Assembly: GCA_963839305.1 (NCBI GenBank)
Contig: CAWIUL010000011.1
Span: 2,633,561-2,697,560 of the forward strand
DNA length: 64,000 nucleotides
Source of the DNA: an uncultured delta proteobacterium
GTDB lineage: Bacteria > Myxococcota_A > Polyangia > Polyangiales > Polyangiaceae
Direction: 5' to 3'
Part shown: positions 13,026 to 37,710 of the stretch, one piece after another
How positions within the stretch are numbered: the first letter of the stretch is position 1
How the letters are laid out: each line of letters begins with the position of its first letter
Program-made: the position numbers and the translations under genes
Notes under the pieces: generated by a model
Told to the model about the DNA's origin: nothing
The model's database searches: none
The model's input: only the letters and a program-made list of their open reading frames with translations

Positions 13026-14678
13026 TCAGCCGCGCGCGGCGCGCTCGAGCTCGAAATAGAACGAGACGAGGTCGCTCTCGCGCGACCCTTGCTGGAAGAA
13101 GCGGTAAACGCGCCCGATCGGCCACACGCGCGTCGTCGGGGGCACCATCATCGACCAGCGGCCCGGCTCGTCGCCCTCGGTCTCGATCCACTGCGCGCCG
13201 AGGCGGCGCGCGAGGATCTCGCTGAGCAGCGCGCCGTGACGCGTCAGCTCGGTCTCGAGCATGCGCGCTTGGCGCTCGTCGCGCTTGGCGTCACCGAACC
13301 TACGCCGCAGGTGGCGCTGCATCGCCTCGATAGCGACCGGATCGGTCTTGAGCGTCGTCCCGTACGAGAGGCGGTAGTCGCGCGCGAGCTCTCGCGCGAG
13401 CTCGGTCATCTTCGCGCGCGCCGCGTCGCCCTCTGGGATGGCCATCGTCTCGACGACCTCGGCCCCCGAGCGCGCTCCTCCTTCGATGCTCGGCATCGCC
13501 GGCGCGCGCGGGATCGCTTGAGCGGGCGGGAGCGACGCGCCCGCGGGCGCCGCCGCGGGACGATCGCTGATCACGACGTCCGGCGGCCGGAGCGACGCCG
13601 CGGGCGGCGGCCGCATCGACTCGTTGGTCTTCGCGGTCGACTCGAGGATCTCGACCGCGGAGATGCGCGCGCCCGATCCCGCGACGGGGTCCTCGGTCAC
13701 GCGGCGCGCGAAATACCGCGCGTACGCGATCTCGCCGCTCGCGAGCCACGCGCGCGCGGCGAGCACCGCGAGCTCGGACTCGGGTTTGTCACCGCCGGCC
13801 ATCGCGGTGAGAAAGTGCGCGACCTCGCGCAAGCGCGTCTCGCCGTGGAGCATCGCCGAGTGCGCTCGGAGCTCGTCGATGAGCGGCGCGGGCGCGTGCT
13901 CCGCGTGCTCGTCCGCGACGATCATGTCGGGGAGCGCAGCCGCTTGCACCGGGTTCGACGGCGGGCGACGCGACAGCGCGGAGGCGAGCGCGTGGAGGCG
14001 CGGACGCTCTCGGCTCAGCGCGGCCCGCGCGCGCAAATCCGTCACGACGTCCGCGTCCACCTCGGCCTCGTTCGCGGCTCGCCTCGCGTCGATCGGCCGC
14101 TTCGTGAGCGCGAGCGCGTGCGGGAGGTCCTCGATGGCGTCGACGGTCATCCGTCGCCACGTTCGCTGGTTCGCCTTCGTGCGATCGGGGTCGGTCAAGA
14201 GGCGCACGGGGGTGTCGTCGGGCACCTCCGCGAGGACCATCGCGAGGTGCACGAGCTGCAGCGCGAACGCACCGCGTTCCATCGGGCACGCGTCGGCGAT
14301 CGCCCCAAGGTCGAGCCAGGTCCCTCCGTAGTGACGCGCGGTCGCATCGTAGACGCCACCCTGAAACGCCTCGCACGGACCGAGCTGCGACGCGACGCGC
14401 ATGATCGCCGCCGTACGCGCGAGGCTTTCACACGGCCCGAGCGATCGAAACGCCGCGCGCGCGAGCTCCGTCGTCGCACCTGCTCGAACGAGACGATCGC
14501 GCGCGATTGACGCGGTCGTCAGATACCCCTGCTCGCGCACGCCCACGCCCCCAGAAGGCGCCGCGAGGAGCACCTCGGACGCGTCGAAGAGCGCGTACTC
14601 GATCTCGAGCACCCCTTCGGATCGTGCAACGACCCAGTCACCCACGACGAGGCTCGTAGCCACTGCTGGCCATGCTAC
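13026..14678 (-). CDS. Hypothetical protein; start uncertain.
   Basis: Long minus-strand ORF with coding-like composition. The 5' part of the 692-aa ORF overlaps the PilZ gene on the opposite strand and is probably not translated. No recognised domain. Confidence 0.4.
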   Translation of the reverse strand, partial: VAWPAVATSLVVGDWVVARSEGVLEIEYALFDASEVLLAAPSGGVGVREQGYLTTASIARDRLVRAGATTELARAAFRSLGPCESLARTAAIMRVASQLGPCEAFQGGVYDATARHYGGTWLDLGAIADACPMERGAFALQLVHLAMVLAEVPDDTPVRLLTDPDRTKANQRTWRRMTVDAIEDLPHALALTKRPIDARRAANEAEVDADVVTDLRARAALSRERPRLHALASALSRRPPSNPVQAAALPDMIVADEHAEHAPAPLIDELRAHSAMLHGETRLREVAHFLTAMAGGDKPESELAVLAARAWLASGEIAYARYFARRVTEDPVAGSGARISAVEILESTAKTNESMRPPPAASLRPPDVVISDRPAAAPAGASLPPAQAIPRAPAMPSIEGGARSGAEVVETMAIPEGDAARAKMTELARELARDYRLSYGTTLKTDPVAIEAMQRHLRRRFGDAKRDERQARMLETELTRHGALLSEILARRLGAQWIETEGDEPGRWSMMVPPTTRVWPIGRVYRFFQQGSRESDLVSFYFELERAARG

Positions 14679-14756
14679 TCCGAAGCGCTCGTTCGTCGAA
14701 ACAAGGCGCTGGCGTGGCCGAGCCGCAGGCGTATCCTCGATGTTCGGAGGTAGTCG

Positions 14757-15083
14757 ATGGAGGAACGCCGTCAATTTCGACGACTGCAAGTTCCCGTCTA
14801 CTGCCGCGCAGCCGGCATGGAGGTGATGACGCGTCGTCACCCGATCGACTTGAGCCTCGGCGGCGTTCGTATCTACAGCGATCAGCGCTTCGCCAAAGGC
14901 GAGCTTTTGACCCTCGAGCTCATGACCGTCGATGCCCCCGCGAGCACCTTCACCGCCGAGGTCATGTGGATCGAAGACCTCCCAGCTGGATCCCCCGCTC
15001 TGTACGATGTTGGCCTGAGATTCCGCAGCGTTGACCCCACCCAGGCCACCGCGCTGGAGCGGATGTTGGCGAAATCCGAGTAG
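14757..15083 (+). CDS. PilZ domain protein.
   Basis: PilZ c-di-GMP-binding motifs RRQFRR and DLSLGGVRIY. 108 aa. Confidence 0.8.
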   Translation: MEERRQFRRLQVPVYCRAAGMEVMTRRHPIDLSLGGVRIYSDQRFAKGELLTLELMTVDAPASTFTAEVMWIEDLPAGSPALYDVGLRFRSVDPTQATALERMLAKSE

Positions 15084-15177
15084 TTTCGACCACATCGCAC
15101 CCACGAAAACATTTCGGCACCTCGGAGTACAAGGTGGGATAGGTTGTCATGGGCTTTGCATCAGCCTCCCTACTAAG

Positions 15178-16551
15178 ATGTCCCTCTCCCGTCGTACCTG
15201 GCAGAACATCAACTTGATCGGTGACTGCCTGCTGCTGTTTCTCGCAGCCAGCGCAGCGACCGTCTTCCCTGGCGGCATCCACTGGATGGTCGCCCTCGGC
15301 ATGGCCACCGGCGCGATGTTGCTGTGGATTGTCGGCAGCCGTGTGCTTCGGCATTACGACATCGGAAACGGCCGCGGAATCCCGGGCGATGTGGCGCTCA
15401 CGCTCGTCTTGCTCTTCGCCACGGTCGTGCCGATGTTCGCGCTCCGCTACATGGTGCCGCGCTACGCGGCCGTCGCGGACATGACGCGCTTCGTGACCGT
15501 GTTCGTGATGGGCGTCGTGTGGCTTCGCCTCTTGACGAGCTGGCTCAAGACGCGCCCGCCGCAGCCGCCCGAGGAGATTTTGATCGTCGGTGTCGGCCCG
15601 CTCGGACGTCACACGGGTCTCGAGATTCATGCGCAAAAGCGCAACCGACGCGTGACCGGTTATCTCCGCTTGGTCGACGAGCCGGAGCACAAGCGTTTGC
15701 CCGCGGGCATCTTCGGCATGGTCGACGAGCTCGAGAACGTGCTGAAGACGCACGTCGTCCACGAGGTTTACCTCGCGAGCAGCGAGGAGACGCACCGCGC
15801 GCAGATCCAAGAGGCGATCCGCGTCTGCGAGCGCTTCGGGATCCCGTTCGCGCTTCCGGCGAACCGCTTCCGCATCGCGCGCGCCGAGCCGCGCGATCGC
15901 GCCGCGCTGGGCGACGGCTACGTCCACTACCTGTCGTTCCGCCACAAGCCGGTGCAGCTGCTGCTGAAGCGCGCGTTCGACATTTTCGCGTCGAGCGTCG
16001 CGATCGCGCTGCTCTCGCCGATCTTCATCGGCGTGGCCATCGCGATCAAGCTCTCGTCGAAGGGCCCTGTGCTCTTTCGCCAGCCGCGCGTCGGTCGCTA
16101 CGGGCGCATGTTCAACATGCTCAAGTTCCGCTCGATGGTCGTGAACGCCGAGGAGCTCAAGGCGAAGCTCATGGCGCAGAACGAGCAGACCGGCCCGGTC
16201 TTCAAGATGACGCGCGACCCGCGCGTGACGGGCATCGGGCGCTTCATTCGCAAGTACTCCATCGACGAGCTGCCGCAATTCATCAACGTGCTGCGTGGCG
16301 AGATGACCATCGTCGGGCCGCGCCCGCCGGTTCCGAGCGAGGTCGCTCAGTACGAAGCGTGGCAGCGCCGCCGTCTTTCCGTGCGCCCCGGCATCACTTG
16401 CGTGTGGCAAGTGAGCGGACGGAACCAAATCGGCTTCGAGGAGTGGATGTATTTGGACATGCAATACATCGACAACTGGAGCATCACGCAGGATTTCCAG
16501 TTGATTTTCAAGACCGTGCCGGTCGTGCTCTTCGGCAAGGGCGCGAGCTGA
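15178..16551 (+). CDS. Polyprenyl-phosphate glycosyl-1-phosphate transferase (WbaP/EpsZ-like initiating enzyme).
   Basis: Five N-terminal TM segments. C-terminal bacterial sugar transferase domain (KFRSM, DELPQFINVLRGEMTIVGPRP). Start chosen at ATG 15178. Confidence 0.9.
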   Translation: MSLSRRTWQNINLIGDCLLLFLAASAATVFPGGIHWMVALGMATGAMLLWIVGSRVLRHYDIGNGRGIPGDVALTLVLLFATVVPMFALRYMVPRYAAVADMTRFVTVFVMGVVWLRLLTSWLKTRPPQPPEEILIVGVGPLGRHTGLEIHAQKRNRRVTGYLRLVDEPEHKRLPAGIFGMVDELENVLKTHVVHEVYLASSEETHRAQIQEAIRVCERFGIPFALPANRFRIARAEPRDRAALGDGYVHYLSFRHKPVQLLLKRAFDIFASSVAIALLSPIFIGVAIAIKLSSKGPVLFRQPRVGRYGRMFNMLKFRSMVVNAEELKAKLMAQNEQTGPVFKMTRDPRVTGIGRFIRKYSIDELPQFINVLRGEMTIVGPRPPVPSEVAQYEAWQRRRLSVRPGITCVWQVSGRNQIGFEEWMYLDMQYIDNWSITQDFQLIFKTVPVVLFGKGAS

Positions 16552-16602
16552 TCCGCAGCGCGTCTGTCCGCGGCGCGGTGTTTGCTCTACACCTGGGTGG
16601 AT

Positions 16603-17028
16603 ATGCCCATGGCCCGACGTGTCGTTCTCGTCGTCGAAGACGAACCCCTCCAGCGTGAACGTGTGAAGCTCTGGCTCGAGTCGGAGAAGTTCGATGTCGA
16701 GTGCGCTTCCGAGTACAGCTCGGCGCTCAAGGCGCTCGACAAGACGATCCCCGCCATCGCGTGCGTCGACCTGACGCTCCCGCGAGAGTCCGGTTTGGAC
16801 CTCGTGGAGGCGATCCGCAAGCACACCAAGGGCACTGCGGTGCCGATCATCGTGATGAGCGAGCGGCACTCGCCCGAGGACATGGCCGAGGCCGAGCGCG
16901 TCGGCGCGAACGCGTTCTTGAAGAAGCCGTTCGCGAGGCCGCTGCTCCTCAAGTACGTGCGGTGGATTCTCGACGGCCCCCACGCGAGCTCTCCGAGCAT
17001 CCGCGGGCTACGTCGCGTCGAGGGCTGA
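16603..17028 (+). CDS. Single-domain response regulator (receiver).
   Basis: VVLVVEDE...D...VDLTLP...K receiver motifs. Confidence 0.8.
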   Translation: MPMARRVVLVVEDEPLQRERVKLWLESEKFDVECASEYSSALKALDKTIPAIACVDLTLPRESGLDLVEAIRKHTKGTAVPIIVMSERHSPEDMAEAERVGANAFLKKPFARPLLLKYVRWILDGPHASSPSIRGLRRVEG

Positions 17029-17064: not shown

Positions 17065-17826
17065 TCACGTTACCCTCTTGCTTGGTCCGCCGCGCATCTG
17101 GCGCAAGACCACGAGCGCGAACTCGGGATCACGCAGCAGATAGCGGCGCCAGAGACGCTTCGGCTCGCGGCCGAGCCGGTAGAGCCACTCGAGCCCTGCG
17201 CGCGACATCCACTGCGGCGCGCGCGGGACCACGCCCGCGAGGAAGTCAATCGTCGCGCCGACGCCGAGGAGCACCGCGGGCTTCACGCGCTCGGCGACGG
17301 CGTAGGCGAAGAGCTCCTGCTTGGGCGCGCCGAGGCCGACGAGCACGAGGTCCGGCTCGGCGCGCGCGATCGTCTCCGCGAGCTCGCGGTGCGCGTCGAG
17401 CGACGCGCTCGCCCGCACACGCGGAGACGAAAAACCTGCGACGCGAATATGTCGCTCCTCGAGCGCGCAACTTGCACGCTGTGCGCTGCCCTCGTGGCCG
17501 CCGAGGAGGTACACGCGCCAGCCGCGTTCCGCTGCGCGTTCGAGCAAGGCCGGCACGAGATCCGAGCCGGATATCTTCTCGGGCAGCGGCTCGCGTAGCG
17601 CGCGCGAAGCCCACAAGACGGGCATCCCGTCGACGACCGAGAGGCTCGCGTGCTCGTAGGCCTCGCGAAAAGCCACGTCGTGCTCGGCCATGACGACGTG
17701 GTCCACGTTCGGCGTGAACACAGTGCCGCCAGTCTTGTCGTCGATCATGCGCTCGATGGCCGCGAGGGCGTCGGCGAAGGTCACACGATCGATGGGCAGG
17801 CTTCCGATTCGAACCCGATCCTTCAC
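17065..17826 (-). CDS. WecB/TagA/CpsF family glycosyltransferase.
   Basis: Family-typical full-length sequence. GTG start overlaps the stop of the upstream gene (GTGA). Confidence 0.85.
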   Translation of the reverse strand: MKDRVRIGSLPIDRVTFADALAAIERMIDDKTGGTVFTPNVDHVVMAEHDVAFREAYEHASLSVVDGMPVLWASRALREPLPEKISGSDLVPALLERAAERGWRVYLLGGHEGSAQRASCALEERHIRVAGFSSPRVRASASLDAHRELAETIARAEPDLVLVGLGAPKQELFAYAVAERVKPAVLLGVGATIDFLAGVVPRAPQWMSRAGLEWLYRLGREPKRLWRRYLLRDPEFALVVLRQMRGGPSKRVT

Positions 17827-19460
17827 GATGGAGCGGAGTCTTTCTTGTGCAAAGACCCGGCCACGCGCTGCGTCACGCGTGGGTGGACTTCGGCATCGGG
17901 CGCGCTCACGAGCGAGCCCGGCGGGACGTCGTCGCGGACCACGCAGCTCGCCATGATCTTCGAGTCTTCGCCGATCGTGATCGGTCCGAGGAGCGTCGCG
18001 CCCGGTCCGATGTGGACGTTGCGGCCAACGTTCGGCGCGCCGGTCGCAGATCGGCCGGAGGCGGCCTGCGCAGCCGTGGATGCCGACTCGCCGAGCGTGA
18101 CGTTGTGAAAGAGGATCGCGTCTTTCCCGACGCGGGCCTTCGGCGAGATCGCGAGGCCCATGCCGTGGACGATCTGCACGCCGGGCTCGATCTGCGCGTC
18201 CCAGTGGATGTCGGAGCCGTAGAGGTGGCGGATGAGGCGCGACGTGATCATCGCGAGCGGCGTCGCGCCCGCGTCGCGGAAGAAGTGCATGAGCCTCACG
18301 GCGACCATGATCTGGAAGCCGATTCGGACGACCGCGTCGCGCGGAAGATCGCCCTCGTCGCCGTCGCGGCCGCCGTATTTCGCGCCGTAGTGGCGGAGCG
18401 TCGCGTGGTCCTGGCGGACTGCCTCGCGCAGCTGGCTCGCCGCGACGAGCGTTCGTTCCGTGCGCGACGCGGGGCCCGCGCGGCGCGCGTAGTCGAGCCA
18501 GTCGGTGATCGCGTTGCCGATCGCGCCCGCCTCGGCGCGCATGCCGCGCGCGTACTCGAGCCCGAAGACGAGCGTCATGCCGCGGAGCGCCGCGCGCTCG
18601 AGGCCCGCGCGCTCGAGCCGCGACGCGAGCGCGACGGCGGCGGTCGCGAGCTTCTCACCCGCGCCGGGCGCCGCCAGCGAGAGGACGAGGAGCGGTCGCG
18701 AGAGCGACGAGAGCTCGCGGAAATAGCGCCACGGGCTCGCGTGCGGCGCGTCGGGGTGCTTCTTGCCGATTCGCGAGTCGAACGTGCCGTACGCCTTCGC
18801 GCGCTTGCGAAAACCCGCGAGGCTGTCGCGGTCGGACGAGTGGATGCTCGCCGCGACGTCGCTCAGGTAGAACGTCGCGCCGTTCTTCTCGAGGCGCACG
18901 CCGAGCTCGGCGTCCTCGGAGTGGCCTAGCGTCGCGTCGAAGCCGCCCGCGCGGAGGTACGCGTCGCGCTTCATCGAGAGGTTGCCCGTGTAGACGTTGG
19001 GCCCGCGAAACGTCACCTTGCCCGAGATCACGTCGTTCGCGAAGCGCTCGAGGACGTCCGCGTGGAAGCGCTCGAAGAGCTCGAGCTTCATCTCGGGGTC
19101 CGGCTTGATGCGACCGAGCACGACCGCGTTCGGATCGCGATCGTGGATCGCGAGGTGCGCGGCGACGAGGCCCTCGTGGACCTGCATGTCGTCGTCGAGG
19201 AAGAGGATCACCGGGCCGCGCGCGCGTGTGACGCCACGGTGTCGCGCGGCCGCGGCTCCCGCGTTCTCTTGGCGCTCGACGACGAGCGTGAACGGGACGT
19301 CGAGGGCGCGGAGGCGCGGCGTCGGATCCTCGCGCGAGCCATCGTCGATGATCACGACCTCGAGATCGCTCGCGACCGTCTGCGCGGCGAGCTGGCGCAC
19401 GAGGCGCTCGATCGAGGCGCCGCGGTTGTAGGTCGCAACGACGATGGAGGCGCGTATCAC
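17823..19460 (-). CDS. Family 2 glycosyltransferase fused to a C-terminal serine-acetyltransferase-like hexapeptide domain.
   Basis: N-terminal GT-A fold (SIVVATYNRG, DDGS, DDD). The C-terminus resembles CysE: helical region plus a left-handed beta-helix with GVQIVHGMGLAI...G. No stop between the two domains. GTG start with GGAGG 9 nt upstream. GTGA overlap. Confidence 0.75.
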   Translation of the reverse strand: MIRASIVVATYNRGASIERLVRQLAAQTVASDLEVVIIDDGSREDPTPRLRALDVPFTLVVERQENAGAAAARHRGVTRARGPVILFLDDDMQVHEGLVAAHLAIHDRDPNAVVLGRIKPDPEMKLELFERFHADVLERFANDVISGKVTFRGPNVYTGNLSMKRDAYLRAGGFDATLGHSEDAELGVRLEKNGATFYLSDVAASIHSSDRDSLAGFRKRAKAYGTFDSRIGKKHPDAPHASPWRYFRELSSLSRPLLVLSLAAPGAGEKLATAAVALASRLERAGLERAALRGMTLVFGLEYARGMRAEAGAIGNAITDWLDYARRAGPASRTERTLVAASQLREAVRQDHATLRHYGAKYGGRDGDEGDLPRDAVVRIGFQIMVAVRLMHFFRDAGATPLAMITSRLIRHLYGSDIHWDAQIEPGVQIVHGMGLAISPKARVGKDAILFHNVTLGESASTAAQAASGRSATGAPNVGRNVHIGPGATLLGPITIGEDSKIMASCVVRDDVPPGSLVSAPDAEVHPRVTQRVAGSLHKKDSAPS

Positions 19461-19990
19461 GTCTTGACGCCTCCTCGCGCCGGCATCTTCACGGTCTGAT
19501 GAGCGGGATCGGGCGCCTTCGCCGTCGCTTCGCTCGGGGCGGGCTGCGCGACCTTCGCGCGTGACTTCTTGCGCGCGAGGATCGTCCCCACGAATTTGTC
19601 GTGGCCGATCTCTTCGACGGTCTTCACTGCGGCCTTCATCGGCGTCTCGCCGAGGCGCACGACGAGCACCGCGGTGTCCGCTCCCTTCGCGAGCGCGATC
19701 GAAGTCGGGTTCTGCTGGATGGACGCGAGCGCGATGATCACGCAGTCGCCCTTCTTCACGTGCTCGTCGATTTCCTTCTTGTGGTAGTCGACGAGGCGCA
19801 TCGTGATGTCGCGCAGATCGAGCACGACGGTGGGCTCGCCGCGGTATTGCCACGCGACCTCGGCGATCGCGCTCGCGACGTCGAGTGACGCGATTTGGCG
19901 CATCGTGGGTACGACGGCGAGCACGCGCCACGTCTTCTTCTGCAGCGCGAGCCAGAGGCTTTGGAGCTCGAATTCTGCTTCGGGGGTCAC
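19457..19990 (-). CDS. Degenerate BY-kinase-like (ParA/MinD-fold) domain protein lacking the Walker A motif.
   Basis: Fold-like pattern VLAVVPTMRQIASLDVASA...VVLDLRD in place of the PGEGKST P-loop. GTG start overlapping the GT2 stop. Lies between a GT2 and the PCP gene, the position typical for the Wzc kinase half. Confidence 0.55.
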   Translation of the reverse strand: MTPEAEFELQSLWLALQKKTWRVLAVVPTMRQIASLDVASAIAEVAWQYRGEPTVVLDLRDITMRLVDYHKKEIDEHVKKGDCVIIALASIQQNPTSIALAKGADTAVLVVRLGETPMKAAVKTVEEIGHDKFVGTILARKKSRAKVAQPAPSEATAKAPDPAHQTVKMPARGGVKT

Positions 19991-21198
19991 TTCGCGGCCT
20001 TCTCCCTCGTCGTACGAACCCACGTGCTCGGTCGGTCCGACGCGGCCAGTCCGAGCTTCCAGACGACGTACACCGGCGCCCACGCGAGGTCGAGCGCTGC
20101 CCGCGGCCCGAGCCGCGTGAGCTGAACACCACGGAAGACGTACGCGCCGACCATGGCGCCCGCGACGGTCCACGGGATCCACGCGACCGGGCGCGAGCCG
20201 GTCGCGATCGCGAGGGCTGCCGTGATCGCGGACGCGCCGAGGCCGAGTACGATCGAAACACCGAGCTTCGAGAGCGGCGGCGTCAGGAGATCGGCGCCGA
20301 GGTCGAACAGCATCGCGTTGCGCTCGACGATACCGCGCTTCAAGAGGCGCCAGCCGTGCTTGTCCGTGAGCTCGCGGCGGCCTTCTTCCCAGCGTTGCCG
20401 CTGCGAGCGCGCGGCCTTGCCCGTCGAGACCATCTCGCCGAGCACCGCGGCCTCGCCCACGTACGCGACGCGATGGCCCGCTTCGCCGAGGCGAATGCCG
20501 TACTCGACGTCCTCGACGATCGAGAACGCGTCGTGAGGGACCTCTCGGAGGACGCTGCACGCGAAGCCCATCCCGTTTCCGCGCAGGCCGCACGAGACAC
20601 CGAGTCGCTCGCGCGCGTTCGAGCGCACCACGTGGAAGAGCGACATCGCGATGACCATGAGCCGCGTGCGCCAAGAGGCCTCCGGGTTTCGCACGCCGTA
20701 CTCGGCTTGCACGGCGACCTCGCCCGCGGAGAAGCGCGCGGCGAACGCCATGAGCAGGTTCTTCGTGACGCGCGTGTCAGCGTCGACCACGACGACGGCG
20801 TCGGCGTGACCTCGAGCGAGCGCCTCTTCGAACGCGCGCGCGAGCGCGTAGCCTTTGCCGCGTTTCTCCGCGTCGACGCGCTCGATCACCTCGGCGCCAG
20901 CCGCTCGTGCGCGAGACGCGGTGGCGTCGCTGCAGTTGTCCGCGACGACCACGACGCGAAAGCGATCGCGCGGATAGTCCACGGCGAGCAGGCTCGCGAC
21001 GGTCTCGGCGATGTTCGCCTCCTCGTCGTGCGCGGGGACGATCACGTCGAAGTACGGGCGCTTGCCGTTCGCCTTGGGCGCCGCCTTCGGCTTCGACAGC
21101 GCGGTGAGCGCGCCGAGGTAGCCGGACGCGGCGAGCGTGGGGAGTGACGCCGCGGCTACCGCGCCGTCGAGGAGCCGAAAGGCGGTCCGGAGTCTCAC
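19987..21198 (-). CDS. Family 2 glycosyltransferase, membrane-anchored.
   Basis: DVIVPAHDEE, VVVADNCSD, VVVDAD, QRQRWEEG (QxxRW), C-terminal TM helices. GTG at 21198 overlaps the PCP stop. An alternative ATG lies at 21249. Confidence 0.8.
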   Translation of the reverse strand: MRLRTAFRLLDGAVAAASLPTLAASGYLGALTALSKPKAAPKANGKRPYFDVIVPAHDEEANIAETVASLLAVDYPRDRFRVVVVADNCSDATASRARAAGAEVIERVDAEKRGKGYALARAFEEALARGHADAVVVVDADTRVTKNLLMAFAARFSAGEVAVQAEYGVRNPEASWRTRLMVIAMSLFHVVRSNARERLGVSCGLRGNGMGFACSVLREVPHDAFSIVEDVEYGIRLGEAGHRVAYVGEAAVLGEMVSTGKAARSQRQRWEEGRRELTDKHGWRLLKRGIVERNAMLFDLGADLLTPPLSKLGVSIVLGLGASAITAALAIATGSRPVAWIPWTVAGAMVGAYVFRGVQLTRLGPRAALDLAWAPVYVVWKLGLAASDRPSTWVRTTREKAAK

Positions 21199-22676
21199 GT
21201 CTCGAGCTCCCCCAGGATCGGCAACTTGAGCTTCCGCTCGACCTGCCACGGTTCGACGATGACCCCGAGGCGCCGCTCGCGCAGCACGACGCCGCCGAAC
21301 GCGAAGACGAAGATCGCGAACGCGATGCCCAAGAAGAGCGCGATCGGGTTGGGGTTACGCGGGCGCCTCGTGACCTCGGCGGGGTGGACGATGCTGAAGC
21401 GGTATTTGTGCGCCGTCTTCGCGATGTCGAGCTCGATCTGCGCGCCGTCGATGCGGTTCTCGAGATCCGCGTATTTCTGGGCGCATTGCTGCAATTTCAT
21501 CTGCGCGACGGTGACCGCGGGATCCTCCTCCATGATGAGCCGCGAGCTCGGCGAACCCGTGAGCGCGGCGATCGTCGCGGCGGACGAGTGCGTCGTCGAC
21601 GCCGCGGCGATCGCGGTCGCGAGCGGCGGCGCGTTCACGGCCACCTTGTCGATGAGCGCGCGCTCCTCGTTGCGCAGGCGCGCGAGGTCCGGCGGCTCGG
21701 CCTGAGCCTCCACGAGCTTCTGCTTGAGCGCGACGACCGTCGGGTGCTCGGGCCTGTACTGAACGAGCGCGTCCGAGAGCTGCTTGTTCAGCTCGTTGAT
21801 GCGCTGCGTGCGCTGCGACTCGACCTGTTGGATCTCGTTGCGCTTGTCCTGGAGCGCTTGGAGGAGCGCGGGATCGACGGCCGGCGCGTTGGCGCTTGCC
21901 TTCGGCGCGGGCGGCGCCATGAAGCGCGGCTGAGCGACCGCGTTGTTCGCCTTCGCCGCCGGTTTCTTCTTCATCTCCAGCGACTCGAACTCGTCGCGCG
22001 CCTCGTCGAAATGCGACTTCTCCTCTTTCGCGTGCTGCTGCAGAATGTCGATCGCGTCGTTGATGACGCTGATCTCCGCGTCGTAGCGCGCGTCGATGAA
22101 GTTCTTCTCGACCGCGGAAGCGAGGTCATACGCCATCTGCGCGTCGGTCCACTCCGCGGTGATCGTGATCGTCGTGTCGTCGCTCGTGACGGTGAGCCGC
22201 TTCTCGAGCACTCCTTCGATCGCTCGCATCCGGTCTTGCTCATCCGGCCGTCCCGCGAGCTTCTCGGTGACGCGATCCCTCCAACGGAGGAGGGTCGGCC
22301 GCGACCCCGCCCACCGGTCGACGAGGTTCACTTGCTTGATGAGCCCGACGAGGTTGTCGTGCTGGAGGATCGTGTCGCCGACGTTCTTCGTGGGGTTGTC
22401 GGCCTCGCGCGGGACGGTGCGGTTCGGGTTTCCGAGCGCGGGGAGCACCAGGTTGCGCTGCGCGAGGATTTTCACCTCGGTCGAATACGTCCGCGGGTAG
22501 AGGACGAACAGCGCACCGCCCAGACCGAGCGACAGCACGAGGAGGGCGATGAACCTGTACGGGTTCCTCCTCGGAGCGCGCAGCACGTAGCCGACGAAGT
22601 CGGAGATGGCGTGTAGGTCAAGCCCCTCCTCTTCCTCCTCGTCTTCGTGCCGATTGTGATCTTCGCCTTTGGGCAT
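21195..22676 (-). CDS. Polysaccharide co-polymerase (Wzz/Wzc periplasmic domain) protein without a kinase domain.
   Basis: N- and C-terminal TM helices flank a long coiled-coil periplasmic region. Acidic N-terminus. Ends right after the second TM. Confidence 0.8.
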   Translation of the reverse strand: MPKGEDHNRHEDEEEEEGLDLHAISDFVGYVLRAPRRNPYRFIALLVLSLGLGGALFVLYPRTYSTEVKILAQRNLVLPALGNPNRTVPREADNPTKNVGDTILQHDNLVGLIKQVNLVDRWAGSRPTLLRWRDRVTEKLAGRPDEQDRMRAIEGVLEKRLTVTSDDTTITITAEWTDAQMAYDLASAVEKNFIDARYDAEISVINDAIDILQQHAKEEKSHFDEARDEFESLEMKKKPAAKANNAVAQPRFMAPPAPKASANAPAVDPALLQALQDKRNEIQQVESQRTQRINELNKQLSDALVQYRPEHPTVVALKQKLVEAQAEPPDLARLRNEERALIDKVAVNAPPLATAIAAASTTHSSAATIAALTGSPSSRLIMEEDPAVTVAQMKLQQCAQKYADLENRIDGAQIELDIAKTAHKYRFSIVHPAEVTRRPRNPNPIALFLGIAFAIFVFAFGGVVLRERRLGVIVEPWQVERKLKLPILGELET

Positions 22677-22742: not shown

Positions 22743-23159
22743 ATGTACGCCGCAGTCGGTTTCGACCTCGTCGACGTACGTGAGGTGCAAGACTCTATCG
22801 ATCGCTTCGGTGAGCGATACCTCACGCGCGTCTACACGCCAGCGGAGATTGAGTACGCGATGAGCGCGCCCGATCGCGCGACGGCAGCGCGCAGGCTGGG
22901 GGCGCGCTTCGCTGCCAAGGAAGCCACGATCAAAGCGCTCGGCGCGAGCGAGCGGGGCATTAGTCCTCGCGAGATCGAGGTCGCGAGGAGTGCTGACGGC
23001 GCGATCCGGATCATCTTGCACGGTCCGGCATTTGCTGCAGCTCGGGAAGTGGGTGCAACGGCGTTCGTCGTCAGTGTGTCGCATCAAGGCGATTTGGCGG
23101 GCGCAGTCGTAGTCATGGAGAAAAAGCCGACGAGTCGAATCAGGTGGAAGAAGAAATGA
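22743..23159 (+). CDS. 4'-phosphopantetheinyl transferase (AcpS-type).
   Basis: AVGFDLVDVREV...RF...EA..KA.G. AcpS-size (138 aa). Confidence 0.8.
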   Translation: MYAAVGFDLVDVREVQDSIDRFGERYLTRVYTPAEIEYAMSAPDRATAARRLGARFAAKEATIKALGASERGISPREIEVARSADGAIRIILHGPAFAAAREVGATAFVVSVSHQGDLAGAVVVMEKKPTSRIRWKKK

Positions 23160-23404
23160 ACGATCGCATTCGGACGATTTTGAAGGAACACGGACGCCTC
23201 GCTGTGGAAATATCGACACTCGCCGACGACGCGGACTTATACGAAGCGGGAATGACCTCGCACGCGAGCGTCAACGTGATGCTCGCCCTCGAAGGCGCGT
23301 TCGACGTGGAGTTCCCCGACCGCATGCTTCGGCGCGGCGTCTTCGAGAGCGTCGTGGCGATCGCCACCGCGCTGAACGAGCTCACCCAAGGGAAGGCATC
23401 ATGA
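23156..23404 (+). CDS. Acyl/aminoacyl carrier protein.
   Basis: About 82 aa with a four-helix pattern. Ser in DLYEAGMTSHASVNVMLALE. The ATG at 23156 overlaps the PPTase TGA. Confidence 0.75.
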   Translation: MNDRIRTILKEHGRLAVEISTLADDADLYEAGMTSHASVNVMLALEGAFDVEFPDRMLRRGVFESVVAIATALNELTQGKAS

Positions 23405-24561
23405 GCGAAACAGTCGAGCTGGTCGCGCGGATTGGCCGTGAGGTCGCCGCGCCGAACGCTGATTCAGTCGATCGAGAGGCCCGCTTTCCGACCGAAGCGA
23501 TCGACGCGCTGAAGAAGGCGAAGCTGATGAGCACGCTCGTGCCGCGCGCCCTCGGCGGTCACGGCACCGGGATGATCGAGCTCGCCGCGATGTGCGAGGC
23601 CCTCGGCCAGCACTGCGCGTCGACGGCGATGGTCTTCGCGATGCACCACATCCAAGTGGCGAGCATCCTCCGCCACGCGATGAAGCAGCCGTATTACGAG
23701 CGCTACGTCGCGGAGCTCGTCGAGAAGCAGCCGCTCATCGCGTCGGCGACGAGCGAGGTCGGCATCGGCGGCGAGATGCGGACGAGCCGCTGCGCCGTGG
23801 TCCGCGACGAGGACGCGCGGTTCAAGCTCGACAAGGACTGCTCGACGATCTCGTACGGCGCCCAGGCCGACGACATCTTGTTCCAGGCTCGGCGCGGGCC
23901 GGACTCGCCGCCGAACGATCAGATCTTCGTCCTCGTGCGAAAGCCCGAGTGCACGCTCACGCAGAAGGGCAACTGGGACACGCTCGGCATGCGCGGGACG
24001 TGCAGCCCGCCGTTCATGCTCGAATCGAGCGGCGAGGTCGGTCAGATCTTCGACACGCCGTTCTCCGACGTCGCGAGCGAGACGCAGGTGCCGTTCAGCC
24101 ACGTGCTCTGGTCGAACGTGTGGCTCGGGATCGCCACGGCCGCCGTCGGCCGGGCGCGCGCGTTCGTGAGGCAGCAAGCGCGCGCGAAGCCCGGCACCGT
24201 GCCGCCCACCGCGCTCCGCCTCGCGGAGGCCTCGAGCATGCTCCAGACGATGCGCACCAACGTGCACGACGTCGCGAGCGAGTGCGACCGCTTGATGCAC
24301 GACGACAAAGAGGGCACCGCCGCGCTCTCGTCGATCGGGTTCGCGCTCAAGATGAACAACCTGAAGGTGAGCTCGTCGCAGCTCGTCGTTCAGATCGTGA
24401 ACCATGCGCTCTCGATCTGCGGGATCATGGGCTACAAGAACGACTCGAAGGTGTCCGTCGGACGCCACCTGCGCGACGCGCACTCCGCCGCGCTCATGGT
24501 CGGAAATGACCGCATCTTCGCGACCAACGCGTCGATGCTCCTCGTTCTCAAAGACGATTGA
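23401..24561 (+). CDS. Acyl-CoA / acyl-ACP dehydrogenase family protein (FkbI-like).
   Basis: Full-length ACAD fold. ATGA overlap with the carrier-protein gene. Confidence 0.8.
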   Translation: MSETVELVARIGREVAAPNADSVDREARFPTEAIDALKKAKLMSTLVPRALGGHGTGMIELAAMCEALGQHCASTAMVFAMHHIQVASILRHAMKQPYYERYVAELVEKQPLIASATSEVGIGGEMRTSRCAVVRDEDARFKLDKDCSTISYGAQADDILFQARRGPDSPPNDQIFVLVRKPECTLTQKGNWDTLGMRGTCSPPFMLESSGEVGQIFDTPFSDVASETQVPFSHVLWSNVWLGIATAAVGRARAFVRQQARAKPGTVPPTALRLAEASSMLQTMRTNVHDVASECDRLMHDDKEGTAALSSIGFALKMNNLKVSSSQLVVQIVNHALSICGIMGYKNDSKVSVGRHLRDAHSAALMVGNDRIFATNASMLLVLKDD

Positions 24562-24569
24562 GGCAAACC

Positions 24570-25475
24570 ATGTCGTACTCGCCGCAGGAGCTCTACGAAG
24601 GGCTCGTCTCGAACAGGTTGATCATCCCCGTCGGCGTGCAGGGCATCTTCGGGCGCGGCCCGGTGTTCGAGGAAGTCCTCGCGCGGTTCGACGACTACGT
24701 CTCGCGCGTCGCGAAGGACGACGGCGCGGAGAAGATGATGTTCCCGCCCACGCTCGACCGAAGGGTGTTCGAGAAGGTCGAGTACATGGACTCGTTCCCG
24801 CATTTGTCGGGCGTGATCTTCTCGTTCAAGGGGACCGAGCGTCAGGCGCTCGAGCTCGGCGCGAAGATCCACGCGGGCGAAAACTGGGACGGGCTCATGG
24901 CGTCGACGGAGTGCGTGCTCACGCCGGCCGCTTGTTATCCGGTCTATCCGAGCTTCGCGGGGACGGTGCCCGAGCAAGGTCGGCTCGTCGACATGCAAAA
25001 CTGGGTGTTCCGTCACGAGCCCTCGCCCGAGCCGACGCGCATGCAGGCGTTCCGCGTTCGCGAGTTCGTCCGCGTGGGAACGCCCGACGTGGTCCTCGCG
25101 TGGCGCGACATGTGGCTCGAGCGCGGGCTTCAAATCATGAAGTCGCTCGGGCTGCCCGCGAAGAGCGACGTCGCGAGCGATCCGTTCTTCGGCCGCGGCG
25201 GCAAGATGCTCGCTGCGAACCAGAAGAACGCGCGGCTCAAGTTCGAGGTGCTCGTGCCCGTCATCTCCGAGGAGAACCCGACGGCGCTCTGCTCGTTCAA
25301 CTGGCACCAAGAGCACTTCGGTCAGGTGTTCGACATCAAGACGACGGACGGCGCCGTCGCCAACACCGCGTGCCTCGGCTTCGGCATGGAGCGCGTGTGC
25401 ATGGCGCTCTTCAAGCACCACGGGTTCGATCCCGCGAAGTGGCCAGCCGAGGTGCGCGCGAAGCTCTGGCCATGA
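24570..25475 (+). CDS. Amino acid--[carrier protein] ligase: truncated class-II aaRS (atypical SerRS-like) catalytic core.
   Basis: Class II motif 2 (FRVREFVRVGT) and motif 3 (GFGMERVCMALF). Cys residues (ACYPVYP) resemble the Zn site of methanogen-type SerRS. No tRNA-binding domain. About 300 aa. Adjacent to the carrier protein and the PPTase. RBS GAGG upstream of the ATG at 24570. The track ORF begins with TTG at 24558. Confidence 0.7.
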   Translation: MSYSPQELYEGLVSNRLIIPVGVQGIFGRGPVFEEVLARFDDYVSRVAKDDGAEKMMFPPTLDRRVFEKVEYMDSFPHLSGVIFSFKGTERQALELGAKIHAGENWDGLMASTECVLTPAACYPVYPSFAGTVPEQGRLVDMQNWVFRHEPSPEPTRMQAFRVREFVRVGTPDVVLAWRDMWLERGLQIMKSLGLPAKSDVASDPFFGRGGKMLAANQKNARLKFEVLVPVISEENPTALCSFNWHQEHFGQVFDIKTTDGAVANTACLGFGMERVCMALFKHHGFDPAKWPAEVRAKLWP

Positions 25476-26461
25476 GCGCCATCGTCCACGCCCTGCCGCG
25501 CATCGACGCGTCCACGTACGCGCCCCACGAGCTCCATCGCGGCGAGCGCGCCTGGGGCGAGTCGAACTGTTACATCGACGTGTGGATCGAGGTGCTGAAC
25601 GCGCTCGGGTGCGATCCGCACGCGTGCCTCTCGTTCGTGACGAGCCTCGACTGGGAGGGCGATCAGTTCACGTTCTTCAAGCCGCCGCACGAGGATCTCT
25701 ACGAGCTCTACGGCGTCGACATCCAGGAGCTCACGATCTACAGGCCGCTCGTCGAGAACGCGATCGAGCAGCTGAAACAGGGCAAAATCGTGCTCTCCGA
25801 GATCGACGCGTACTACCTGCCGGACACCGCGGGCACGGACTATCGCGCGCAGCACACGAAGACGACGATCGGGATCCAGGAGATCGATCTCGAGGCGCGC
25901 ACGCTCGGGTACTTCCACAACTCGAGCTACCACGTGCTCGAAGGCGCGGACTTCGTCGGGCTCTTTCGGCTCGACGCGGCGCCTGACCCGACCTTCATGC
26001 CGTTCTTCGCCGAGCTCGTGCGGACGAAGCGCGTCGTGCGCCACGAGCCGCGCGCGCTCGTCTCGCGCTCGGTCGCGCTCTTGAAGAAGCACCTCGCGCG
26101 GAGGCCCGACCAAAACCCGATCCCGCGCTTCGCGGAGACGTTCAAGGCAGACATCGAGCGCCTCAAAAGCGAGGGGCTCGCCGCGTATCACCTCTACGCG
26201 TTCGCCACGATTCGCCAGCTCGGCGCGGCGTTCGAGTTCGCCGCGCTCTACCTCCGCTGGCTCGAGCGAAACGGCGAGGGCGATCTCGAGCCCAGCGCGC
26301 TCGCGTTCGACGCGATCTCGAGCGTGTCCAAATCGCTCGTGTTGAAGGCCGCGCGCGCCGTGGGCGCCAAGAAGGACGTGGACCTTTCGTCGATGCTGCA
26401 CGAGATCGAGTCGCAGTGGACGAGCGGGATGACGCACCTCGCGAAGCGGTACGGCGTGTGA
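25472..26461 (+). CDS. Conserved hypothetical protein (329 aa), co-transcribed with the aa:CP ligase.
   Basis: ATGA overlap with the ligase stop. No motif recognised. Confidence 0.6.
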   Translation: MSAIVHALPRIDASTYAPHELHRGERAWGESNCYIDVWIEVLNALGCDPHACLSFVTSLDWEGDQFTFFKPPHEDLYELYGVDIQELTIYRPLVENAIEQLKQGKIVLSEIDAYYLPDTAGTDYRAQHTKTTIGIQEIDLEARTLGYFHNSSYHVLEGADFVGLFRLDAAPDPTFMPFFAELVRTKRVVRHEPRALVSRSVALLKKHLARRPDQNPIPRFAETFKADIERLKSEGLAAYHLYAFATIRQLGAAFEFAALYLRWLERNGEGDLEPSALAFDAISSVSKSLVLKAARAVGAKKDVDLSSMLHEIESQWTSGMTHLAKRYGV

Positions 26462-26462
26462 G

Positions 26463-28857
26463 ATGAGGCTCGACGAGGGGTGGGAGATGGCGCTCGGAGC
26501 GCCCGTGGCTTGGAGACCGATCCCACGCGAGCGATTCGGCACCGTCGCGCGCGTCCTCGGAACGACCCTCGACGGCGACGTGACCGATTTCGACGCGACC
26601 GAGGTTTGGTATCGCAAGCGGCTCGCGCCCGGCGAGACGGGCGATCTCCTGAGGCTCGGCGGTCTCGCGACGCTCTGCGACGTGCGCGTCGACGGCGAAG
26701 AGGTGCTCCGCACGGACAACATGTTCGTGGAGCACGAGCTCACCGTCGCGCGACCCGCGCGAGATCGAGCTTCACTTTGCGCCGCTCGCGAAGGCGCTCG
26801 CCGAGCGTCGTCCGCGCCCGCGGTGGAGGGCGACGATCGTGGCGCAGCAGCAGCTCCGGTGGTTTCGCACGAGCCTGCTCGGGCGGATCCCGGCGTGGAC
26901 TCCGCCGATCGCGCCGGTGGGACCGTGGCGGCCCATCACGCTGGAAAGGGCGTCGCCCATCGCCGCGCACGACCTCAAGACGCGACTCGAAGGGCGCGAC
27001 GGCGTGGTCGAGGCCACGATCGCGCTGCGAGGCGACGTGAAGACCGTCGAGCTCGCCGTGGGCGAGCATCGCGCGACCCTCGAGGTCGACGGCGTCGCGC
27101 GCGGCACGCTGCGCGTCCCGAACGCGCCGCTCTGGTGGCCGCACACGCACGGTGCGCAGCCCCTCCTTCCGGTGCGCGCGCGGGTCGACGGAGCCGACTT
27201 CGAGCTCGGCGCGACCGGGTTTCGCAAGCTCGACGTCGATCAGCAGGGCGGCGCGTTCACGCTGCACGTCAACGGCGTTCGCGTCTTCGCGCGCGGCGCG
27301 TGCTGGACGCCGCTCGACCCGATCGGCCTCGGCGCCACGAAGGCCGAGCTCCGCGCTGCGCTGACGCAGGTGAAGCGCGCGGGGATGAACATGGTCCGCC
27401 TCTCGGGGACGATGGTCTACGAGTCGCGAGACTTCCACGAGCTGTGCGACGAGCTCGGGATCCTCGTCTGGCAGGACTTCATGTTCGCGAACATGGACTA
27501 TCCGATCGCGGACGAGCGCTTCGCCGCGTCCGTGCGCCGCGAAGCGACGCAGGCGATGTCGCGTCTTCAGCTCTCACCGAGCCTCGTCGTGTGCTGCGGC
27601 GGAAGCGAGGTCGAGCAGCAAGCGGCGATGATGGGGCTGCCCGAGAAGGACTGGTCGAGCCCGCTCTTCGCGGAGGTCTTGCCGGGGATCGTGCGCGAGG
27701 CGCGCCCCGACGTCGCGTACGTGCGCTCGACCCCCGCCTCGCATTTGGGGGGCGGCGTCCTGCCTTTTCACGTCGATCGCGGCGTGTCGCATTATTACGG
27801 CGTCGGCGCGTACCTTCGCGATTTCGACGACGCGCGGCGCGCGCGCGTGCGCTTCACGTCCGAGTGCCTCGCGTTCGCGAACGTGCCGCGCGACGAGACT
27901 ATCGAGGCGCTCATGCGCGACGGTGAGTCGCCTCCGAACCACCCGCGCTGGAAGAGCCGCGTGCCGCGCGACCGCGGCACGCCGTGGGACTTCGACGACG
28001 TGCGCGATCACTACGTGAAGGAGATCTTCGGCGTCGATCCACGCGCGCTCCTCTTCGGCGACGGCGCGCGGTACCTCGAGCTCGGGCGCGTCGCGACGGG
28101 CGAGGCGATGGCCGCGGCCATGAGCGAATGGCGTCGCGCGGGGTCCGAGTGCGCGGGCGCGCTCGTGTGGTTCCTGCGCGATCTGTGGGACGGCGCGGGT
28201 TGGGGCGTCATCGACGCGCGCGGCGCGCCCAAGGCGGCGTACCACCACTTGAAGCGCGTCCTCGCGCCCGTCGCGCTGCTCGCGATCGACGAAGGGCTCA
28301 ACGGGCTCGCGCTCCACGCGGTGAACGACGCGCCGAGCGCGATCGACGCGGAGCTCCGCGTCGCGCTTCATCGTGGCGAGGGGATCGTCGCCGAGGGCAC
28401 GCGCGCCGTCGCGCTCGGAGCGCACGACGCCATCGCCGTCTCCGCGGACGAGGTCATCGGCCGCTTCACGGACGTCACCTACGCGTATCGCTTCGGGCCG
28501 CGCGGTCACGACGCCACGCTCGCGACGCTTCGCGATCGCGCGAGCGGCGCGCTCCTCGGGCGCGCGTTTCATTTCCCGCGCGGCGCTCGCGCAGAGCGCG
28601 CGAGCGATCTCGGCCTCGAGGCACGCGCCGAACGCGTCGACGAGGGCTCGTGGAGGCTCACGGTGCGCACGAAGAAGGTCGCGTACGCGGTCGCCATCGA
28701 CGCGCGCGGATTCGTCGCCGACGACGACTTCTTCCACGTGGCGCCCGGCGACACTGGCGCGTTCTCGACCGTGCTCACGGGGCGAGGCGACACGATCTCG
28801 GGGACGGTTAAGGCGCTCAACGCCACGACGCCGACGAAGATCGTTTGCGCGCGTTGA
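26463..28857 (+). pseudogene. Glycoside hydrolase family 2 (beta-mannosidase-like), reading frame broken near 26750. Pseudogene or sequencing indel.
   Basis: The N-terminal sugar-binding domain is in frame 26463 (…TDNMFVEHELTVA). The rest is in the frame of ORF 26839..28857 (…REIELHFAPL…, GH2 TIM-barrel). The switch falls within about 26745-26760. Confidence 0.65.
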
Positions 28858-37136: not shown

Positions 37137-37710
37137 GCTGATCCTCGTGTGTGCGCTCGGTGCGGGCGCATGCGGCCCCTCGGGGTCGTACGTCTGGGTG
37201 AAAGACCTTCCGCCAACCGGCGATTTCTCGACGGACTACCTCATCGCCACTGGCGACGTGATCAGTGTGCGTGTGATCAATCAAGATTCGATGAGCACAC
37301 GCGCGCGCGTCCGCAACGACGGCCGCGTGGCGCTCCCGCTCGTCGGTGACGTCGAGGTCCGCGGGAAGAAACCGGCGTCGGTGCGCCTCGAGCTCGAGGC
37401 GCGCCTCAAGGAGTACCTCGTTGCGCCGAGTGTCACCGTGAACGTCGAGGAGGTGGCACCCGTGACGGTGAGCGTTCTCGGCGAGGTCACGCACCCGGGC
37501 GTCGTGCAGATGGACGGCTCGGGCGGCGTCGCGCAGGCGCTCGCGTCCGCGGGCGGCCTCACCGACTACGCGTACCGCGATCGCATCTTCGTCGTACGCT
37601 CCGGTGGCAAGCCTTCGCGCGTGCGCTTCACGTTCGACGAGCTCGCGGGCGGCGATTCGGCTGCGTCGCGCTTCACGCTGCGACGCGGAGACGTCGTCGT
37701 CGTCGAGTGA
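37123..37710 (+). CDS. Short outer-membrane polysaccharide export (OPX/Wza-like) lipoprotein lacking the C-terminal OM-spanning helix.
   Basis: Lipobox LGAGAC. Poly_export (PES) motif PLVGDVEVRGK with SLBB-like regions. Only 195 aa. Confidence 0.8.
   Translation: MRIRELILVCALGAGACGPSGSYVWVKDLPPTGDFSTDYLIATGDVISVRVINQDSMSTRARVRNDGRVALPLVGDVEVRGKKPASVRLELEARLKEYLVAPSVTVNVEEVAPVTVSVLGEVTHPGVVQMDGSGGVAQALASAGGLTDYAYRDRIFVVRSGGKPSRVRFTFDELAGGDSAASRFTLRRGDVVVVE

Follow-up and report, generated by a model that had tools for sequence, protein, structure and literature searches.

The 64-kb window that we analysed (the whole 64,000-nucleotide stretch of contig CAWIUL010000011.1, GenBank assembly GCA_963839305.1) comes from an uncultured member of the Polyangiaceae and carries, within a gene cluster for Wzx/Wzy-dependent exopolysaccharide (EPS) synthesis, a small minus-strand gene at 19457 to 19990 whose product resembles a bacterial tyrosine kinase (BYK) stripped of its catalytic motifs. 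One gene upstream lies the gene for a polysaccharide co-polymerase (PCP) of class 2 that has no kinase domain, a homologue of EpsV of Myxococcus xanthus. We argue below that the small protein is probably a BY pseudokinase of the type of M. xanthus EcpK and the partner of this PCP. The features that bear on this reading are:

19457 to 19990, minus strand: gene of the putative EcpK-type bacterial tyrosine pseudokinase, 177 codons plus stop, with a GTG start at 19990 and an alternative GTG at 20023.
19886 to 19909, minus strand: loop PTMRQIAS (residues 28 to 35) at the position equivalent to the P-loop, between strand 1 (residues 23 to 28) and helix 2 (residues 35 to 50), without GxxxxGK[ST].
19811 to 19819, minus strand: D58-L59-R60, which closes strand 2 (VVLDLR) and occupies the position of Walker A'.
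19721 to 19741, minus strand: strand VIIALAS (residues 84 to 90), equivalent to Walker B, with Ala87 at the position of the catalytic Asp.
19460 to 19573, minus strand: basic C-terminal tail (residues 140 to 177), free of Tyr and predicted to be disordered, with the clade-conserved end TVKMPARGGVKT.
21195 to 22676, minus strand: EpsV-type PCP-2 without a kinase domain, 493 residues, matching the NCBIfam EpsV model NF041864 end to end with 269 bits.
21198 to 21281, minus strand: cytoplasmic C-terminal extension of this PCP, RERRLGVIVEPWQVERKLKLPILGELET, proposed as a docking peptide for the pseudokinase.

The phase of third-position GC in this window (68% GC) identifies the strand and frame of the 19457 to 19990 open reading frame (ORF) as coding. 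Its GTG start at 19990, directly preceded by a Shine-Dalgarno-like run (GGGAGAAGG), overlaps the stop codon of the upstream glycosyltransferase family 2 (GT2) gene by four nucleotides (GTGA), and its own TGA shares a GTGA in turn with the GTG that opens the downstream gene, so that the pseudokinase gene and the two flanking glycosyltransferase genes are most likely translationally coupled. Most homologues start at the position of 19990; the public annotation of an identical sequence (P0001) runs to 188 residues and begins 11 codons further upstream at 20023, which may be an alternative start. A homologue search returned 35 close homologues with E values down to 1e-107, all of them unannotated, and a profile search of 1.84 billion representatives, clustered at 50% identity, enlarged the family to at least 823 clusters at E ≤ 1e-3 (484 at E ≤ 1e-10); the ORF is therefore a conserved gene rather than a chance ORF. 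Across 150 representatives W13, W21, D105, G129, and G135 are near-invariant and D58 is kept in 85%, none of these residues falling within the P-loop, and the family as a whole can be recognised by the signature WQxLWLA...RFxGxV. A six-frame scan found no second family member in the window.

An AlphaFold2 model of the protein, built on a 36-sequence alignment of its close clade, reaches a predicted local distance difference test score (pLDDT) of about 90 over residues 1 to 142 (block means of 83 to 94 past the first ten residues) and has the topology H-E-H-E-H-E-H-E-H-E, in which five strand-helix units come after an N-terminal helix; residues 143 to 177 score below 50 and are predicted to be disordered. 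When the model was compared with the PDB by Foldseek, all 46 matches at E ≤ 1e-3 were BYKs (Wzc, BceF, CapAB, Etk, and VpsO), Wzc 3la6 among them with an E value of 2e-5, and a second fold search also placed the protein among the BYKs. Sequence profiles reach this conclusion marginally at most: i) the window protein has no Pfam match, and its one NCBIfam match, to the tyrosine-autokinase model TIGR03018, is marginal (E 0.0019) and spans the last third of the model; ii) a profile of the close homologues matched no PDB sequence, and the top PDB sequence match of the broad family profile was VpsO, at E 0.015; and iii) TIGR03018 was matched by 7 of 107 family members scanned (best E 4.4e-5) and the BYK model EpsG by 2. 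The fold is thus established by structure prediction, and the model indicates that the core of the BYK fold is kept, a SIMIBI P-loop NTPase fold of five strands flanked by helices. A ParA/MinD-type ATPase with a deviant Walker A motif was considered and rejected, since the protein has neither KGGxxK[ST] nor its closest fold similarity to MinD or ParA.

What has been lost is the lysine loop of Walker A, the aspartate of Walker B, and the cluster of tyrosines at the C-terminus. At the P-loop position GK[ST] occurs in none of the 150 family representatives in the profile alignment, and positions 29 to 35 are among the most variable of the family; the register of PTMRQIAS relative to the PGEGKS of an intact P-loop is uncertain by about two residues. 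The canonical Walker B motif hhhhDxxP is likewise absent: in the broad family profile the family's "rvivALss" aligns with the Walker B sequence "RIVIDTPP" of VpsO and places Ala87 at the Asp, and this alanine is invariant in the close clade and present in 115 of 149 representatives. The C-terminal tail (residues 140 to 177) contains nine Lys and Arg, two Asp and Glu, and no Tyr; the only tyrosines of the whole protein, Y49 and Y69, lie in the folded core, and the tails of the family representatives displayed carry at most one Tyr. Judging from these losses, the window protein should be unable to autophosphorylate by the known BYK route. The Walker A' consensus hhhhDxDxR is also absent, and of it only D58 and, in the close clade, R60 are left; neither residue varies within the 36-sequence clade, and among 149 representatives D58 is found in 127 and R60 in 77. 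The spacing from the P-loop position to D58-x-R60 equals what we take to be the spacing from the Walker A Lys to DxR in Escherichia coli Wzc, and D58-x-R60, if equal spacing is a guide to its equivalence with DxDxR, may be a partial remnant of Walker A'.

A preliminary description of this DNA, made from the letters alone, had read a BY-kinase fold with a replaced P-loop from the hydrophobic pattern of the protein, had proposed a profile search, and had named a structure prediction without a P-loop NTPase fold as grounds for abandoning the reading. The AlphaFold2 model and both fold searches bear it out, the prediction having given the BYK fold, while the profile search yielded the marginal BYK matches cited above and nothing in Pfam. 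Its observations that Walker A is replaced (the loop reads PTMRQIAS) and that a Tyr-rich tail is missing both stand; its reading of a likely pseudokinase agrees with the loss of Walker A and Walker B and of the Tyr cluster and has to be qualified for the Asp retained at Walker A'.

One observation concerns the very end of the protein. The terminal motif TVK[ML]PA[RS]GG (19460 to 19495, minus strand) is conserved in the clade, and its two Gly codons (GGAGG) serve at the same time as Shine-Dalgarno sequence of the downstream epsD/C gene, whose start overlaps, so part of what looks like conservation of protein may be conservation of a translational signal.

The PCP encoded at 21195 to 22676 matches the EpsV model over residues 15 to 492 (positions 9 to 482 of 484). 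Hydropathy reveals two hydrophobic segments, at about residues 41 to 62 and at 443 to 467, and only 28 residues are left beyond the second, which agrees with the earlier claim that this PCP has no kinase domain. These 28 residues correspond to the EpsV tail of 25 residues that has been modelled into an EcpK groove (PMC12004946), and the same tail motif occurs in a natural fusion protein, P0044 (687 residues), in which residues 18 to 505 form an EpsV-like PCP and residues 543 to 684 a pseudokinase domain. The PCP part of P0044 is 38% identical to the window EpsV (E 7e-106), an alignment that includes the tail motif, WQIRRRLKLEILGE, just before the linker to the pseudokinase domain. As a Rosetta-stone fusion, with its domains in the order found in Wzc, P0044 supports a probable physical coupling of PCP and pseudokinase, and by analogy with EcpK we propose the C-terminal extension of the window PCP as the docking peptide. 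No canonical BYK or low-molecular-weight protein tyrosine phosphatase (LMW-PTP) motif was found in a six-frame scan of the 64-kb window, and within real genes Walker A motifs were confined to two ATPases of ABC transporters. The further suggestion of the preliminary description, that chain length is regulated here without tyrosine phosphorylation, is thus supported in its second half, there being no Tyr cluster, kinase domain, or BYK or LMW-PTP motif in the window; its first half is too narrow, in that the published role of EcpK lies in EPS synthesis as a whole.

The idea that a kinase-less PCP works together with a pseudokinase is not new. It has already been published for EcpK and EpsV (Blocher et al., J Bacteriol 2025, PMC12004946), and the preliminary description is an independent rediscovery of it. 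According to that work EcpK (MXAN_7447, formerly WzeX) is a BY pseudokinase of M. xanthus that AlphaFold2 and Foldseek liken to the BYK domains of Wzc, Etk, VpsO, and CapAB and that lacks Walker A, A', and B as well as the Tyr tail; its gene is placed within the eps gene clusters, and an in-frame ecpK deletion abolishes EPS; EcpK interacts in two-hybrid and proteomic assays with EpsV, a kinase-less PCP-2 whose C-terminal extension of 25 residues occupies a groove of EcpK in the model and there imitates helix alpha1 and strand beta1 of the Wzc kinase domain; the two arginines at the end of M. xanthus EpsV (LAELERR) are described as hooking into Glu pockets on EcpK, and of the three Glu residues concerned two are conserved in close relatives only; and EcpK and EpsV, together with HfsB and HfsA of Caulobacter, are proposed to form a third, phosphorylation-independent PCP-2 subfamily (PMC12004946).

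We linked the window protein to EcpK through the ecpK primers in Table S1 of PMC12004946, which encode five peptides of the M. xanthus protein: N-terminal M-AADSS, QRLWF, VIDSL, FLGSV, and C-terminal ASQKKKA-stop. These fit the family signature, and all five are closely matched by the representative P0099 (MSADSSP...LSRLWFAL...VVVIDSLL...RFAGSV...KKKP), which was found with the profile of the window protein (E 2.8e-23) and shares 35% identity with it across 130 residues (E 2e-26). The window gene adjoins an EpsD homologue, and by gene numbering MXAN_7447 presumably abuts epsD, which we take to be MXAN_7448. Because of the primer peptides, P0099, and this position, the window protein very likely belongs to the EcpK family. 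The likeness goes further: like EcpK, the window protein is small and stand-alone, has a BYK-like Rossmann fold in reduced form (five strands in a sheet flanked by helices) whose top fold matches are Wzc, Etk, VpsO, and CapAB, lacks Walker A and Walker B as well as a Tyr tail, ends in a basic C-terminus, and is encoded beside an epsD homologue in a Wzx/Wzy cluster for EPS; and like M. xanthus EpsV, the window PCP has no kinase domain and ends in a short cytoplasmic extension. There are also differences, in that the window protein is only about 35% identical to the EcpK-like P0099, carries D58 and R60 at the Walker A' position as residues invariant in its clade, and is encoded in a cluster that unites what in M. 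xanthus are two eps sub-clusters, ecpK and epsV being about 26 locus tags apart there and separated by one gene here.

The same comparison can be extended to other systems. HfsB and HfsA of the C. crescentus holdfast pathway also combine a stand-alone BYK-like protein, without catalytic residues or Tyr tail, with a kinase-less PCP-2, although they belong to another pathway and another phylum and the likeness is drawn from the published description; both are required for polysaccharide synthesis, and the C-terminal helix of HfsB is predicted to contact the membrane helix of the PCP rather than the membrane (both summarised in PMC12004946). Proteins such as SMc01795 of Sinorhizobium meliloti, a PCP-2 whose kinase domain is degenerate (Cuthbertson et al. 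2009, cited in PMC12004946), join a PCP to an inactive BYK-like module and are in this respect analogous to P0044; they differ from the window protein in being fused, and they come from other phyla. Relative to the kinase domains of Wzc and Etk (PCP-2a) and to CapB, which works with CapA (PCP-2b), the window domain is smaller, at about 140 residues compared with about 250; in the published model of EcpK, too, several helices and strands of the Wzc domain are missing (PMC12004946).

We conclude, with a probability of roughly 0.8, that the product of 19457 to 19990 is a small cytoplasmic BY pseudokinase of the EcpK type that partners the kinase-less PCP-2 EpsV in a myxobacterial Wzx/Wzy-dependent EPS pathway. 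Its fold, the loss of its motifs, its kinase-less neighbour, its gene context, and the natural fusion are established by the analysis given here, which also makes its link to the EcpK family very likely; from the M. xanthus work we infer that it would also bind EpsV, dock in the manner modelled for EcpK, be required for EPS, and bind no nucleotide. Several points weigh against this conclusion: i) the pseudokinase gene is translationally coupled to two glycosyltransferase genes and not to epsV; ii) orthology with EcpK rests on primer peptides, the intermediate P0099, and synteny rather than on a reciprocal best hit; iii) the tail of the window protein is predicted to be disordered and has the clade-specific end TVKMPARGG, whereas that of EcpK is a Lys/Arg-rich helix; iv) the window EpsV ends in ...LGELET and lacks the Arg-Arg hook of M. 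xanthus EpsV, so that the details of the contact must differ from those of EcpK and EpsV; v) the model of P0044, confident for the pseudokinase domain, falls below pLDDT 50 in the membrane and linker parts and is uninformative on docking; and vi) the Walker A' Asp is kept in 85% of representatives, so that some residual ligand binding is possible.

If the pseudokinase does partner EpsV, the pair might work as follows. The 28-residue extension of EpsV, a helix (EPWQVERKL) followed by a strand (KLPILGEL), would dock on the membrane-facing side of the pseudokinase and supply what helix alpha1 and strand beta1 contribute to a true Wzc kinase domain; the pseudokinase would turn its basic tail towards the inner membrane; the bound pseudokinase would scaffold the oligomeric state of the PCP required for polymerisation and export; and its binding and unbinding would replace the cycle of tyrosine phosphorylation and dephosphorylation. 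We have also considered that the module is more than a peculiarity of the myxobacteria and more than a passive scaffold, the W13/W21 pair and the Walker A' Asp forming a conserved site for a small ligand or a partner in a large module, and EPS polymerisation being gated by a signal other than phosphorylation; this we think unlikely.

Some eukaryotic "pseudokinases" use non-canonical sites, and the window protein might similarly still bind a nucleotide, or even be catalytic, through a site of its own; it might phosphorylate, or be regulated by a nucleotide or second messenger. The P-loop NTPase fold would suit such a function, as would the Asp at the end of strand 2, the Arg two residues further on that is invariant in the close clade, and the Ser or Thr frequent among representatives at positions 34 to 35. 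We nevertheless regard it as very improbable: a Gly-rich loop or a Lys at the P-loop position is found in 0 of 150 representatives, positions 29 to 35 being highly variable; the Walker B Asp has become Ala or Val; no Tyr acceptor tail exists; and the published analysis of EcpK reaches the same verdict (PMC12004946).

The remaining alternatives turn on the company the pseudokinase keeps. The genes of the window include the best matches to nearly every NCBIfam model of the M. xanthus EPS pathway, with scores that all fall short of the equivalog cut-offs, as one would expect in a distant myxobacterium:

15031 to 16551, plus strand: EpsZ-type initiating phosphoglycosyl transferase (NF041877, 559 bits).
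16582 to 17028, plus strand: EpsW-like single-domain response regulator (best NCBIfam match NF041866 EpsW; PF00072).
17065 to 17826, minus strand: EpsA-type WecG/TagA glycosyltransferase (NF041872, 282 bits; PF03808).
17823 to 19460, minus strand: EpsD-type GT2 fused to an EpsC-type hexapeptide acetyltransferase (NF041875, 347 bits, residues 5 to 316; NF041874, 104 bits, residues 378 to 520); its start overlaps the pseudokinase stop.
19987 to 21249, minus strand: EpsU-type GT2 glycosyltransferase (NF041865, 500 bits); its stop overlaps the pseudokinase start (GTGA), and its true start probably lies downstream of 21249.
35646 to 37136, plus strand: Wzx flippase of the EPS pathway (NF041871, 312 bits; Polysacc_synt).
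37123 to 37710, plus strand: EpsY-type short outer-membrane polysaccharide export (OPX) protein (NF041843, 200 bits; Poly_export and SLBB).
37791 to 39263, minus strand: Wzy polymerase of the EPS pathway (NF041870, 285 bits; Wzy_C).
39267 to 40655, minus strand: probable EpsX-type outer-membrane partner of EpsY (NF041842, a weak match of 32 bits, E 5e-8).
40660 to 42762, minus strand: EpsB-type glycoside hydrolase of family GH44 (NF041873, 719 bits; PF12891).

The pseudokinase gene thus adjoins the EpsD homologue, with epsV one gene upstream. The order EpsV-EpsU-pseudokinase-EpsD/C-EpsA...EpsW-EpsZ is kept in five related loci from Polyangiaceae metagenome-assembled genomes (MAGs; L001 to L005), across which the pseudokinase is the least conserved member of the set, with 49 to 68% identity against 58 to 90% for its neighbours. 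A profile scan of genome contigs found matches in four Polyangiaceae loci only, and the matches of two further homologue searches, with the broad and the sub-family alignments, were all environmental or from Polyangiaceae. In a more distant locus (L006/L007) a 30%-identical pseudokinase homologue lies near a 26%-identical EpsV-like PCP, Wzy, and EpsX.

Given this context, the pseudokinase could be thought to partner EpsU, EpsD/C, or another protein of the cluster, for example as an assembly factor of the repeat-unit machinery, instead of the PCP. The 4-nt GTGA overlaps with both flanking glycosyltransferase genes and the gene order conserved in five loci are what one would expect of such a partnership, yet they are outweighed by the natural fusion P0044, which joins the domain to an EpsV-like PCP and not to a glycosyltransferase, by the distant locus L006/L007, where the homologue has an EpsV-like PCP nearby and no EpsU or EpsD homologue at its sides, and by the direct binding of EcpK to EpsV in M. 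xanthus (PMC12004946). We find a glycosyltransferase partner very unlikely and continue to favour EpsV.

The pseudokinase might instead be an adaptor or modulator of a true BY kinase encoded elsewhere in the genome, with tyrosine phosphorylation acting in trans. Eukaryotic pseudokinases often pair with active kinases, and our inspection covers 64 kb of the genome; myxobacteria do encode true BYKs, BtkA and BtkB in M. xanthus (PMC12004946). The window, however, contains no BYK or LMW-PTP; the protein has two Tyr only, both in the folded core; and M. xanthus lacking BtkA, BtkB, or the phosphatase PhpA still makes EPS at or near wild-type levels (PMC12004946). We therefore give an active kinase in trans scarcely any weight. 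That the gene is a functionless, decaying remnant of a kinase gene, as the loss of every catalytic motif might suggest, is effectively refuted by conservation, the frame being intact with a coding signature, W13, W21, D105, G129, and G135 being near-invariant across at least 823 clusters, synteny being conserved, and the M. xanthus counterpart being essential for EPS (PMC12004946).

The window holds a complete and compact myxobacterial EPS pathway in a Polyangiaceae-type genome, with pseudokinase and PCP one gene apart, and in the main confirms that the pairing reaches distant myxobacteria at about 35% identity. What goes beyond the published work is the size of the family, the variety of its architectures, the absence of a database model, and the retained Asp and Trp pair. 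None of the 107 family members scanned has a relevant Pfam match, a few touch BYK models weakly, and neither Pfam nor NCBIfam holds a model for the family, which is annotated everywhere as "hypothetical protein"; this large family is invisible to standard annotation, and a profile built from the present alignments would remedy that. The fusions of PCP and pseudokinase speak independently, at the level of the genome, for the physical coupling that has been proposed, and the conserved residues W13, W21, D58, D105, G129, and G135 are obvious targets for mutagenesis in M. xanthus.

Among the architectures, P0059 has a PCP C-terminus followed by two tandem pseudokinase domains, several family members carry Pro-rich, low-complexity N-terminal extensions of 150 to 470 residues, and P0047, P0051, P0060, and P0103 are among the representatives behind the variety of the family.

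Several features of the cluster deserve mention in their own right. The EpsD-EpsC fusion is conserved in L001 to L005; in M. xanthus epsD and epsC are, we assume, separate genes. Two Polyangiaceae MAGs (L001/L003 and L002/L004) each have two paralogous eps clusters, every copy with its own pseudokinase and kinase-less PCP, and of these paralogous clusters one copy has an acyl carrier protein (ACP) cassette and the other has Wzx-EpsY in its place. In the window the cassette (22743 to 26461, plus strand) is divergent from epsV. Its products are a phosphopantetheinyl transferase, an acyl carrier protein, an acyl-CoA dehydrogenase, an amino acid-[ACP] ligase (411 bits to NF005479, which exceeds the cut-off), and a DUF1839 protein; through them the polysaccharide may be decorated with aminoacyl or acyl groups. 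The four cassette genes tested occur in L002, L003, and L005 (DUF1839 confirmed in L005 only), and Wzx-EpsY stands in the place of the cassette in L001 and L004.

The gene for the EpsW-like regulator lies directly 3' of that for the EpsZ-type transferase (15031 to 17028, plus strand), an adjacency that fits a report in mBio 2025 (PMC12802240), according to which EPS synthesis is activated when a single-domain response regulator of this kind binds the initiating transferase. Two large ORFs, at 13026 to 15104 (minus strand, 692 residues) and 26839 to 28857 (plus strand, 672 residues), show a clear coding signature; they are found inside the cluster or next to it and match nothing in Pfam or NCBIfam; a gene of L005 at the corresponding position carries a Glyco_hydro_2_N2 mark. 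Finally, a PknB-like Hanks-type Ser/Thr kinase (234 bits) is encoded at 1303 to 2679 (minus strand), about 12 kb from the cluster, and a Ser/Thr kinase gene is also found inside the distant EPS-like locus L006/L007.

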